NCBI GenBank assembly: GCA_043827405.1 | Contig: JBDRPD010000053.1 | Span: forward strand, 130,893-194,892 | Source: Elusimicrobiota bacterium | GTDB taxonomy: Bacteria; Elusimicrobiota; Elusimicrobia; UBA1565 | Direction of reading: 5' to 3' | Length of the DNA: 64,000 nucleotides | Shown: in pieces, positions 50,971-53,591 of the stretch | How positions within the stretch are numbered: the first letter of the stretch is position 1 | Layout: every line of letters begins with the position of its first letter | Notes under the pieces: model-generated | Database searches by the model: none | What the model was told of the DNA's origin: nothing | The model's input: only the letters and a program-made list of their open reading frames with translations | Made by a program: the position numbers and the translations under genes

Positions 50971-51717
50971 TTAATGGTATTCGATGTGCCAGCCGTCGGG
51001 GGAGTACTCTTTCACGTCATGGGGCACGAAGTGATGCTCGATATGCCAGCCGTCGGGCGAATAGACCTCGTAATGGCCGCGGCGCGGCGGGTCTTCCACG
51101 TGGTAGCCGTCATAGGATTCCGGCTCATTGGAGCCGCAGGGATCCTTGGGCGTGGACCAGTGCATATAGGTCGTGCGGAACCACTCCTGGATGCGGATCG
51201 CTTCGCCCTCGTAGGCGTCCATGTCGCCGTCGCGGGTGGCGCCCCGGTACTTCACCTGCACGAAGTGCACGTACTCATGCGCCAGCGAATCTTCGGCGGT
51301 GCGGCCCTTCTTATAAAACAGCGCGTCGTCCTTTAAGAAGATGATGTTCATGTTGTCCAGGTAGACGTTGTGAAAGATCTCGGGGCGCTGGCCGTAGTTC
51401 TTTTCCATCGCGTCCTGAAACACCGTCATCTCCGTCTGCCTCTCCAGATAAACTTCCGGCGGCGCTACATCGGGCTTGAGCGTGACGCCCATTTTCCCGG
51501 CCACGGTCTTGAGCATGCAGGCCTTGTCGACCGCCAGCGGCCAGTAGTCCACGGGCTCCGCCTGGGCCGGATTATAATGCTTGTAAAGCTCAATCTCGGC
51601 CTGACGTTTGGCCTCTTCGAGATCGACGCCCATAAAGCTCTTGAGATCGTCGAAGGCCGCGGCGGGCCGGACGGCGGCGATGAGGAATAAAAACGAGAAA
51701 AGCGCTTTGTTATTCAT
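50971..51717 (-). CDS. secreted HEXXH metallopeptidase-like protein with His-rich C-terminal repeats
   Basis: Signal peptide; LAHEYVHFVQ...YEGEA; YSPDGWHIE occurs twice. Confidence 0.7.
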   Translation of the reverse strand: MNNKALFSFLFLIAAVRPAAAFDDLKSFMGVDLEEAKRQAEIELYKHYNPAQAEPVDYWPLAVDKACMLKTVAGKMGVTLKPDVAPPEVYLERQTEMTVFQDAMEKNYGQRPEIFHNVYLDNMNIIFLKDDALFYKKGRTAEDSLAHEYVHFVQVKYRGATRDGDMDAYEGEAIRIQEWFRTTYMHWSTPKDPCGSNEPESYDGYHVEDPPRRGHYEVYSPDGWHIEHHFVPHDVKEYSPDGWHIEYH

Positions 51718-51797: not shown

Positions 51798-52781
51798 CTA
51801 GGACTCCAACTCCCGGAGCTTGCGGTAGGCCTCATGAATGCGGCCCACCATCTCGCGCTCGGCATTGATCGGCTTGCGCTTGCTCACCGGATGCACGCAA
51901 TAGGCGCGGTCGACCCAGGCCCATTTGACGAGATCTCCCAAGTCCTTGCCCAGCCGGATCTCATCGACCTTCAGAGGAAAGGTCTTGGCCGCCATATCCC
52001 AGGCCAGGCCGCCGCGCGCCTCATAGAGCCGGCGCACCTCGCCTTCCAGCGCCTCGCCGTAGAACTTGCCGGCCTCGCGGTAGGCGTCGTACTGCTCCAG
52101 AAAGGCCCCGCGGCGCACCACGTCGGACCCGAAGAAGATATCGCGGATCGGCATGCGCTCGGCGCGCAGGCGGCTGATGAAGGGATCCATGCAGAACTCC
52201 TTCCAGATATCGTCCCACAGCCGCCCCTCATGCCAGCCCTTCTTGCGCACCATCCACAGCGCCCATAGGCCATGCTCGGCCTCGGCGACATTGAGCTTGA
52301 GGTTATGCGTCTTGATCAGGCCGAGCAGGTCGTCGCGGAAAGTCAGGAAGGACTCCTTGGCGCCCTGGCCGTGAATGGGGAAGAAGTCGCCGTGCGCGAA
52401 GCCCTTGAAGATCGGGTAGCGCTTGGGATTGACCAGCCGCAGCAGCAAAGAGACCCGGCCGATTTCCCCCAGCCGCTTCATCAGCTTGCGGATCAGCTTG
52501 TCTTCGACGTCGACGCCCTTCGTTTTATCCGGCACGAGATCGATGCGCTTCTCGCGCAGGCCTTTGAGCATGGCGGCGGTGAAGCCGAATTTGCGCGGAT
52601 CCCAAAAGTGCGAGCGCTTGACCAGCAGATCGACATGCCGGCTCTCCAGGTCCTTGGTGCTGCGCAGGCCCTTGAAGGCGTCGGCCACCGCCTGGAAGCT
52701 GGGCGACTTGATTCCTTTTTCGCGGTACAGCCGCGCCGCCACCGCGGGGAACTGGGCATAGGCTTTCTCTAAATATTTCAT
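51798..52781 (-). CDS. hypothetical protein with putative C-terminal HEPN-like (RX4H) domain
   Basis: EAGKFYGEALEGEVRRL helix, then DRAYCVHP; N-terminal SLLLRLVNPKRYPIF...VAEAEHGLW. Confidence 0.55.
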   Translation of the reverse strand: MKYLEKAYAQFPAVAARLYREKGIKSPSFQAVADAFKGLRSTKDLESRHVDLLVKRSHFWDPRKFGFTAAMLKGLREKRIDLVPDKTKGVDVEDKLIRKLMKRLGEIGRVSLLLRLVNPKRYPIFKGFAHGDFFPIHGQGAKESFLTFRDDLLGLIKTHNLKLNVAEAEHGLWALWMVRKKGWHEGRLWDDIWKEFCMDPFISRLRAERMPIRDIFFGSDVVRRGAFLEQYDAYREAGKFYGEALEGEVRRLYEARGGLAWDMAAKTFPLKVDEIRLGKDLGDLVKWAWVDRAYCVHPVSKRKPINAEREMVGRIHEAYRKLRELES

Positions 52782-52823: not shown

Positions 52824-53384
52824 TTATCTTGCGACTTTATGCACAAAATCCGGTGTAATCAGCGTACGCTCGTCACAGACATTGAACAGATCTTTATGCG
52901 GTGGATTCTTGGCGCCTCCATGATATAGATGCACCAGTACGCCGCAGTCCTTCGCCAATTCGACCGCCGGCAGAAAATCACTGTCTCCCGTTATCAGAAT
53001 CGCACCGGCAATTTGTCCCTTTGCCGCGAGGCTGACGAGATCGACGCCCAACATTAGATCAGCACGTTTTTGTTGGAAGAATTTGTGTCCGCATGAAGCG
53101 CATGAACGTCTGGCCAGCCTCCCGAGCCTGATGGAAAACCGAGGTAGTCGTTCAAGCGAGGAATAAAACCGGTCGAAGCTTGTTTTCCGTCGAACCTCCT
53201 CAATAGTCGGAGGATCGCTCTGATAGGGCGGGCAGTTGTAATAATACGTTCTAAGCAGAGGCTGCGAACCAGCCAGTTCCTGTGCCAGCTTCCCGAAGTG
53301 GACATTGGCGCCGGGAAACTCTTTGCGGAGCGTTTGCTCCAGATAGCCCGCATCCAGAAAGATGGCGATCCGTTCAGCCGCCAC
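52824..53384 (-). CDS. NYN (LabA/DUF88, PIN-like) domain ribonuclease with CxxC insert
   Basis: IAIFLDAGYL, RTYYY, QQKRADLMLGVDL, ITGDSDFLPAV and LFNVCD; CASC insert; GTG start 53384 with GGCGGT RBS. Confidence 0.9.
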   Translation of the reverse strand: MAAERIAIFLDAGYLEQTLRKEFPGANVHFGKLAQELAGSQPLLRTYYYNCPPYQSDPPTIEEVRRKTSFDRFYSSLERLPRFSIRLGRLARRSCASCGHKFFQQKRADLMLGVDLVSLAAKGQIAGAILITGDSDFLPAVELAKDCGVLVHLYHGGAKNPPHKDLFNVCDERTLITPDFVHKVAR

Positions 53385-53396
53385 AATTACCGCCAC

Positions 53397-53424
53397 AAAA
53401 AAAGGGCCCGCTGCGGGCGGGCCC
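53397..53424 (-). terminator. intrinsic terminator immediately upstream of the NYN gene
   Basis: Minus strand GGGCCCGC-ccgca-GCGGGCCC-TTTTTTT. Confidence 0.8.
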
Positions 53425-53480
53425 AAATGCTAACCCGACGTCCTGATTCCCATTCGGGAGAACGCCGGGGAGTATGCTAA
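53397..53480 (-). ncRNA. candidate ~80-nt small RNA (putative antitoxin or leader)
   Basis: Lies between promoter and terminator; 11-bp stem CCCGGCGTTCT/AGGACGTCGGG with inner CCC-GAAT-GGG, flanked by TTAGCAT direct repeats. Confidence 0.55.
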
Positions 53481-53484
53481 TAGG

Positions 53485-53513
53485 AGTGTAGCACGAGCTC
53501 GGGATCCAGTCAA
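53485..53513 (-). promoter_or_regulatory. near-consensus sigma70 promoter
   Basis: Minus strand TTGACT-17 bp-TACACT with extended -10 TG. Confidence 0.75.
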
Positions 53514-53591
53514 TATGGCGATGATCCATCTCTCGCTGCACACCAGCAGGTACGAGCGGCGGCGAAAAAAGTTCCCGGCCGTAAAGCGGGA

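Follow-up and report, generated by a model that had tools for sequence, protein, structure and literature searches.

A conserved hairpin RNA precedes a NYN ribonuclease gene in a candidate type III toxin-antitoxin cassette

To our knowledge, only a few toxin folds have RNA antitoxins, namely ToxN-like proteins, the HEPN protein AbiF and the AvcD deaminase (AvcID). A locus in an Elusimicrobiota bacterium raises the question of whether a NYN ribonuclease may also be controlled by a small RNA encoded just upstream of it. We analyzed this locus within the window, that is, the whole 64,000-nt stretch of DNA under study, together with its homologs in genomes, metagenomes and viruses. As read from its sequence, the locus forms a self-contained unit. 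On the minus strand, mutM is followed by a promoter, the conserved RNA hairpin, a terminator and the gene for the NYN RNase. Its features are as follows.

53485–53513, minus strand: sigma-70-type promoter, TTGACT-17-TACACT with a TG extension (-35 box at 53513–53508, extended -10 box at 53490–53485).
Near 53478, minus strand: predicted transcription start, placed from the promoter spacing.
53474–53475, minus strand: first AU, four bases 5' of the stem, a predicted recognition or cleavage site; it is invariant in alignment A2, whose units were selected on AU.
53434–53469, minus strand: hairpin with a conserved 10-bp basal stem (53469–53460 with 53443–53434) and a variable apical part.
53427–53428, minus strand: second AU, 5 nt past the stem, the position at which the next unit begins in tandem loci; a predicted second cut.
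53397–53424, minus strand: intrinsic terminator, with an 8-bp GC stem (53424–53404) and U7 at 53403–53397.
53397–53478, minus strand: predicted small RNA of ~82 nt, a candidate antitoxin precursor.
53389–53394, minus strand: putative weak Shine-Dalgarno-like hexamer, read off the sequence.
52824–53384, minus strand: NYN RNase gene (PF01936, LabA/DUF88-like), GTG start at 53384, 186 aa.

The promoter and the terminator with U7 were confirmed where the original prediction had placed them, with the NYN start codon 12 nt beyond the terminator. Two promoter-like sites were found in 2.5 kb of the window, compared with 0.6 in shuffled sequences. The predicted 11-bp stem-loop was also in place, now described as 10 outer pairs (11 possible), a 4-nt bulge and an inner 4-bp stem, and the fold of 53480–53397 reached -41.6 kcal/mol (z -3.6). 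The AU-to-AU unit measures 47 nt in the window and 35–71 nt in homologs (median 39 nt). The window carries a single unit plus a stub and no full tandem array. Both predicted TTAGCAT copies are present (53480–53474 and 53433–53427, minus strand). We rejected UUAGCAU as a family motif, and with it the suggested processing motif: across homologs only its AU is conserved, and some 7-mer repeat arises in 16% of shuffled 84-mers, so that a 7-mer repeat alone is weak. Outside the cassette, a hairpin followed by T6 lies directly past the mutM stop (53565–53591, minus strand); it was noticed by eye and missed by terminator prediction, and it probably insulates the cassette from mutM. The two genes 3' of NYN (51798–52781 and 50971–51717, both on the minus strand) matched nothing in Pfam or PADLOC.

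We then characterized the NYN protein. Against Pfam, the window protein matched NYN only (E 5e-14), and its predicted structure (pLDDT 94.7) found its best Foldseek matches in VPA0982 (2qip) and the NYN domain of MARF1, which agrees with the earlier claim of a toxin fold outside ToxIN, CptIN and TenpIN. A PDB sequence search with the same protein gave no match below E 0.1. The acidic motifs had been called intact, and in an alignment of 59 homologs D11, D109, D115 and D136 were indeed invariant and D134 nearly so. The fold and the conserved acidic cluster together fit NYN (PF01936) RNases, and RNase activity is predicted. The subfamily is further marked by an insert at residues 51–66 and an extended β-hairpin at residues 89–106 that bears a CxxC. 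This CxxC (53070–53120, minus strand) occurs in eight proteins, which make up the window's clade (L001, L002, L081–L085); seven of the eight have a long RNA apical part of 15–29 nt, compared with mostly 4–12 nt elsewhere. An association between RNA variants and protein columns comes from a single clade, and we set it aside.

The 59-homolog alignment was used to fetch the best 80 genome loci, the best 80 metagenome loci and 19 viral loci. Most loci shared a common upstream pattern, in which AU, three free bases and C lead into a 10-bp stem with a variable apex, followed by another AU. A covariance model, R1, was built from 89 units and applied with a match threshold of 21.9 bits. Among the best 80 genome and the best 80 metagenome loci, 67 and 66, respectively, had an R1 match no more than 260 nt upstream of NYN, and 1 Mb of flanking DNA on that strand gave no other match. 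The RNA was thus present in 133 of the 160 best-matching NYN loci, from many phyla, so the conserved, covarying structure that the original prediction had expected upstream of homologs was found. Outside the training set R1 matched 51 of 78 loci, some of which are near-copies of training loci. The 27 misses among the best 160 comprised four loci without upstream DNA, nine with a divergent unit recognizable by eye, three with another structure and 11 with nothing.

Covariation counts on alignment A2 are biased, as its units were picked for pairing, and pairing-blind anchoring provides the fair test. Enough upstream DNA was available for 157 sequences; these gave 138 non-redundant sequences, of which 118 could be anchored. 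The variable pairs 13-44, 14-43 and 15-42 were paired in 90, 90 and 92% of loci, compared with shuffled means of 68, 67 and 60% (maxima 75–80%), and pair 16-41 did not rise above the shuffles in these 118 loci. Compensatory swaps (U-A/C-G, G-C/A-U and G-C/C-G) occurred across several phyla, with kinship inflating the column statistics. The basal stem is fixed in sequence as well as in structure, as would be expected of a protein site. The second AU, which was never used in anchoring, fell 5 or 6 nt past the stem in 88 of 118 loci (other offsets, 1–8 each), and a shared base at -2 of the AU sites stood at 0.60 vs. 0.35. Tandem two-unit arrays with a period of 35–39 nt were present in nine of 138 loci by a strict rule, and in more by eye, the second unit beginning at this second AU. 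Single-unit loci consist of one unit plus a stub, as would be expected if the enzyme cuts both ends. The apex varied from 4 to 41 nt, mostly as a 4-nt loop (terminal loop of 4 nt in 64 of 99), with no variable guide segment.

The Rfam search that the original prediction had called for was run and matched no family. The window element reached no family at gathering score (best E 0.1, with anti-hemB, isrD and P9 sub-threshold), 20 + 20 related loci yielded none apart from tRNA, tmRNA-like and group II intron matches, and the abiF motif RF03085 did not match the RNA. Two further structures were considered. A pseudoknot was rejected (loop-tail helix 0.21 vs. 0.22 shuffled), and an AU/AU closing helix found no support, one inner position being paired above shuffles (0.64 vs. 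0.49). By eye, the last unit runs directly into a U-tract and seemingly doubles as the terminator in nine loci (L025, L102, L113, L129, L128, L154, L061, L090 and L320).

A promoter lay within 70 nt of AU in 76 of 118 loci, compared with a shuffled mean of 5.9, and in 63 of these 76 the -10 box was 9–12 nt 5' of AU, so that transcription would begin just before AU. A terminator-like hairpin followed the unit in 93 of 118 loci and was predicted to be stable (mean pair probability 0.94). Across the 118 loci we found no conserved alternative fold that disrupts the terminator. Units paired with the terminator of their own locus no better than with that of another (-10.83 vs. -10.84 kcal/mol), and since the terminator also stays formed, there appears to be no antiterminator. 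These results argue against a simple attenuator, the fallback named in the original prediction; a switch worked by a protein is still conceivable.

We next asked how closely the RNA is tied to NYN. In the window's own genome there was one strong R1 match, and the NYN gene is single. In 150 other genomes of the host phylum, R1 gave nine matches (best 26.6 bits), none of which preceded NYN on inspection; the cassette NYN occurred in one of 301 genomes of the phylum. Scans of 5, 151 and 151 genomes yielded seven matches of at least 30 bits outside the centre loci. Six preceded NYN (three of them already-known loci) and the seventh was an orphan promoter-unit-terminator; one of six weaker matches preceded NYN. 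At L319:1460-1590, a complete promoter, unit and terminator stand without NYN in a genome (G181) that has a full cassette on another contig (L322).

No recognizable RNA was found in 11 of the 160 best-matching loci. Eight of these 11 NYNs retain the DxD/GDSD residues unchanged, two carry D136N and one S135A, and in five of the RNA-less genomes R1 matched nowhere else. An enzyme with intact residues can thus be kept without the RNA. RNA-less NYNs are altered at otherwise fixed residues (Y54, Q55, R66, R93, H163, S135 and D136), which may weaken them. In a quick tree, RNA-less loci fell in five places (counting L161), three of them nested among RNA-bearing relatives, and this nesting reads as secondary loss; change counts on the tree cover grouped rows only and were set aside.

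The RNA-less homologs with intact acidic residues bear on an alternative in which a non-lethal accessory NYN binds or cuts its own leader hairpin and so limits its own synthesis, the terminator setting a low basal level and the RNA having no inhibitory action in trans. They fit it, as do the lack of a defence context and HEC-09, the one NYN defence candidate with a published test, which gave no protection according to the accessible part of that report. We nevertheless consider such autoregulation unlikely: the unit lies 5' of a terminator predicted to be stable, so that most copies would be free RNA, and tandem units, the L319 promoter-unit-terminator without NYN in a genome with NYN elsewhere, and the lone phage copies described below also speak against it.

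The cassette appears to be sporadic, foreign-looking and horizontally spread. As the original prediction had noted by eye, the NYN gene is less GC-rich than its neighbors (0.53 vs. 0.65 and 0.63), and its GC3 is 0.55 vs. 0.81 and 0.86. The gene at 51798–52781 (minus strand) has a host-like GC3 of 0.86. Among 201 Caulobacteraceae genomes, two close NYNs came with the RNA and four distant NYNs without, and Caulobacter vibrioides OR37 (L019), a cultured non-pathogen, carries the cassette. The Caulobacter gap between zapA and 6S RNA (L019:4783-5711, L583–L597) is an insertion hot spot. Some species have nothing in this slot, four of 15 fetched have a ParDE pair there and OR37 has the NYN cassette; other contents include peptidases and a MarR-aminotransferase pair. 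Among the 119 nearest ORFs of RNA-bearing genome loci we found no recurring partner and no recurring protein antitoxin gene, and the neighbors were unrelated housekeeping genes. Defence islands were not seen: PADLOC at 1e-8 matched six of the 119 nearest neighbors, mostly generic ATPase, kinase, HD and methyltransferase-like domains. The mutM neighborhoods of eight relatives were not syntenic, and among them we found no empty site for the window. Plasmid and phage records held only distant NYNs (25–38% identity) among the matches listed.

Pattern scans of viral contigs returned 37, 120 (of about 140), 37 and 5 matches, the set of five being read by eye only, with no scores. Most of these are chance matches, as AU was not enriched among 102 stem-only matches. 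When only columns outside the pattern were scored, eight of 122 distinct AU-bearing matches reached at least 6, compared with 0 of 94 in a null drawn from one pattern variant (Fisher p 0.009). Of the eight good copies, one belongs to a NYN cassette and two are related to each other, so that the unit occurs without NYN in about six lineages. The phage copies scored 31–40 bits with R1, and ORF inspection revealed no NYN in the fetched flanks. Some are neighbors of tRNA genes (L379, L396 and L354), some lie close to genes for terminase or replication, and others form an optional part of small-RNA arrays. With modest statistics, this suggests that the lone phage units are decoys; a role as a processing signal is possible.

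The arrays themselves (L383:1170-1545, L366, L389, L391, L394, L408, L432, L491 and L499) are series of RNA modules joined by short A-rich linkers. Besides hairpins and the NYN unit, the modules include two tRNA-like units with a CCA end and a putative pseudoknot, seen by eye, which is present once or twice and has a compensatory variant. Related phages differ by gain or loss of individual modules, and the arrays often lie between the genes for the head-tail adaptor and the scaffold/protease. A viral two-unit cassette (L434:1227-1534) has its NYN frame broken by group II intron-like sequence. Distant prophage NYNs (24–32% identity; L163–L172, L170, L174 and L177–L179) likewise follow a promoter, a structured RNA and a U-tract, but the RNA is a different one. 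This RNA lies ~110 nt upstream of the NYN match (L163–L172), forms nested stems round an AU-rich loop, shows compensatory changes in three of 13 pairs in seven sequences and matches neither R1 nor Rfam. It may form, with its NYN, a second RNA-NYN family.

The tRNA surroundings, with a unit abutting a tRNA gene in L379 and heading a tRNA cluster in L396, would suit a model in which NYN and the RNA, as its substrate or cofactor, form a ribonucleoprotein that serves processing or housekeeping, the phage copies being processing or end-protection signals in tRNA and small-RNA arrays. Bacterial NYN genes have been linked to tRNA/rRNA processing by neighborhood (in the accessible part of PMC5499597), and available excerpts on the CRISPR-linked NYN of B. 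fragilis describe it as processing crRNA and cutting without a consensus motif, with relaxed specificity. Such a housekeeping role is nevertheless very unlikely, given a cassette that is sporadic and foreign-looking, with no conserved neighbor or target, and an RNA that has mostly a 4-nt loop at its apex in place of a variable guide segment. That the element is a generic switchable terminator leader or riboswitch, used by many unrelated genes and found here by chance, is hardly tenable and already largely refuted: attenuators share the promoter-hairpin-terminator layout, but strong R1 matches are almost confined to NYN and unit-terminator complementarity is no better than in the swapped controls.

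The type III-like reading, according to which the nuclease would be bound and held inactive by the RNA, accounts best for the data, as the RNA is conserved, covarying, tied to a NYN subfamily, found in tandem and without an antiterminator. Against it count the 11 RNA-less loci, most with intact acidic residues, the missing link to defence islands, the inactive HEC-09, the B. fragilis NYN that cuts without a consensus motif, and the small share of loci with tandem repeats. As in type III systems, promoter, RNA, Rho-independent terminator and toxin-candidate gene form one unit, and the conserved structured RNA is specific to the NYN gene. The layout, the covarying stem, the two AU sites, the tandem units, the tie to the NYN subfamily, the sporadic spread and the phage copies all emerge from the comparison of sequences. 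The locus probably works as a type III toxin-antitoxin module.

We propose the following mechanism. Most transcripts would end at the terminator, providing the ~80-nt RNA in excess, and rare read-through would give NYN. Recognition by the enzyme would involve the basal stem together with the AU-nnn-C tail, and cleavage, probably at both AU sites, would free a 35–47-nt unit that would remain bound and block the enzyme. We regard these steps, taken jointly, as likely. Further, a failure of host transcription, for example during phage infection, would let the RNA decay, the freed RNase would then arrest the cell, and some phages would make the unit as a decoy; defence and decoy together are quite possible, and we put them forward with less assurance. 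More tentative still is a general picture of a widespread anti-phage type III family, in which a NYN RNase is paired with a self-processed, AU-bounded hairpin antitoxin, phage decoys are stored alongside tRNA-like, pseudoknot and hairpin RNAs in modular arrays, and distant prophage NYNs with other RNAs extend the family to a whole class.

If the type III reading is true, a NYN/PIN-like toxin with its own hairpin RNA adds a further fold to those controlled by RNA antitoxins, and provides a small RNA-controlled RNase of about 190 aa. Part of the LabA/DUF88 (COG1432) group would also gain a function; this group is large and unexplained, with E below 1e-30 for 365 clusters (50% identity), and its NYN proteins are listed as of unknown function in the accessible part of PMC5499597. 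If the phage copies are decoys, phage RNA arrays would represent a catalogue of antitoxin mimics, pointing to further RNA-based defences.

Finally, we compared the cassette with known systems. Among titles and abstract openings of mainly open-access papers, we found no NYN toxin with an RNA antitoxin, and the available main text of Weinberg 2017 (PMC5737381) contains no NYN, LabA or DUF88. Stand-alone NYN/LabA-like proteins (COG1432; VPA0982 2qip, the MARF1 NYN, HEC-09 and the B. fragilis CRISPR NYN) have the same fold and acidic site; the portions of the reports available to us mention no dedicated upstream RNA for them, and the subfamily described here has the insert at 51–66 and the extended β-hairpin. 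The original prediction pointed to ToxIN, CptIN and TenpIN. Its type III-like reading stands as the best, and the specific likeness does not. The cassette shares with these systems a promoter, RNA, terminator and ~190-aa RNase, horizontal spread, a unit of about 36–39 nt and a partial additional repeat in which the boundary motif recurs (as given in the accessible text of PMC3401426 and PMC12283969), but it has no MazF/Kid-like toxin, its RNA is a hairpin and not a pseudoknot, and it mostly consists of one unit plus a stub without an array. Phage PhiTE carries the antitoxin-like RNA pseudo-ToxI without a toxin (PMC3475682, in the part accessible); in contrast, the phage copies here occur singly, within tRNA clusters or arrays of mixed RNAs, with a putative decoy role. 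The closest system is AbiF/AbiFr (RCd22), which likewise combines a promoter, a short hairpin motif of 33–35 nt in one or two copies, a Rho-independent terminator and an RNase gene. There the RNase is reached by read-through, and the RNA binds and neutralizes it, according to the accessible sections of PMC12373285 and PMC12737573. The AbiF toxin is a HEPN protein (Abi_2/AbiF), whereas the candidate toxin here is NYN/PIN-like and its RNA does not match RF03085; AU sites flank each unit here, whereas RCd22 is described as uncut between motifs in the available text of PMC12373285. The cassette would thus probably represent a new type III family, nearest to AbiF/AbiFr and distinct from ToxIN, CptIN and TenpIN. 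Overall, the RNA-NYN cassette is real, conserved and uncatalogued, and it is likely to be of the type III kind with a new toxin fold.
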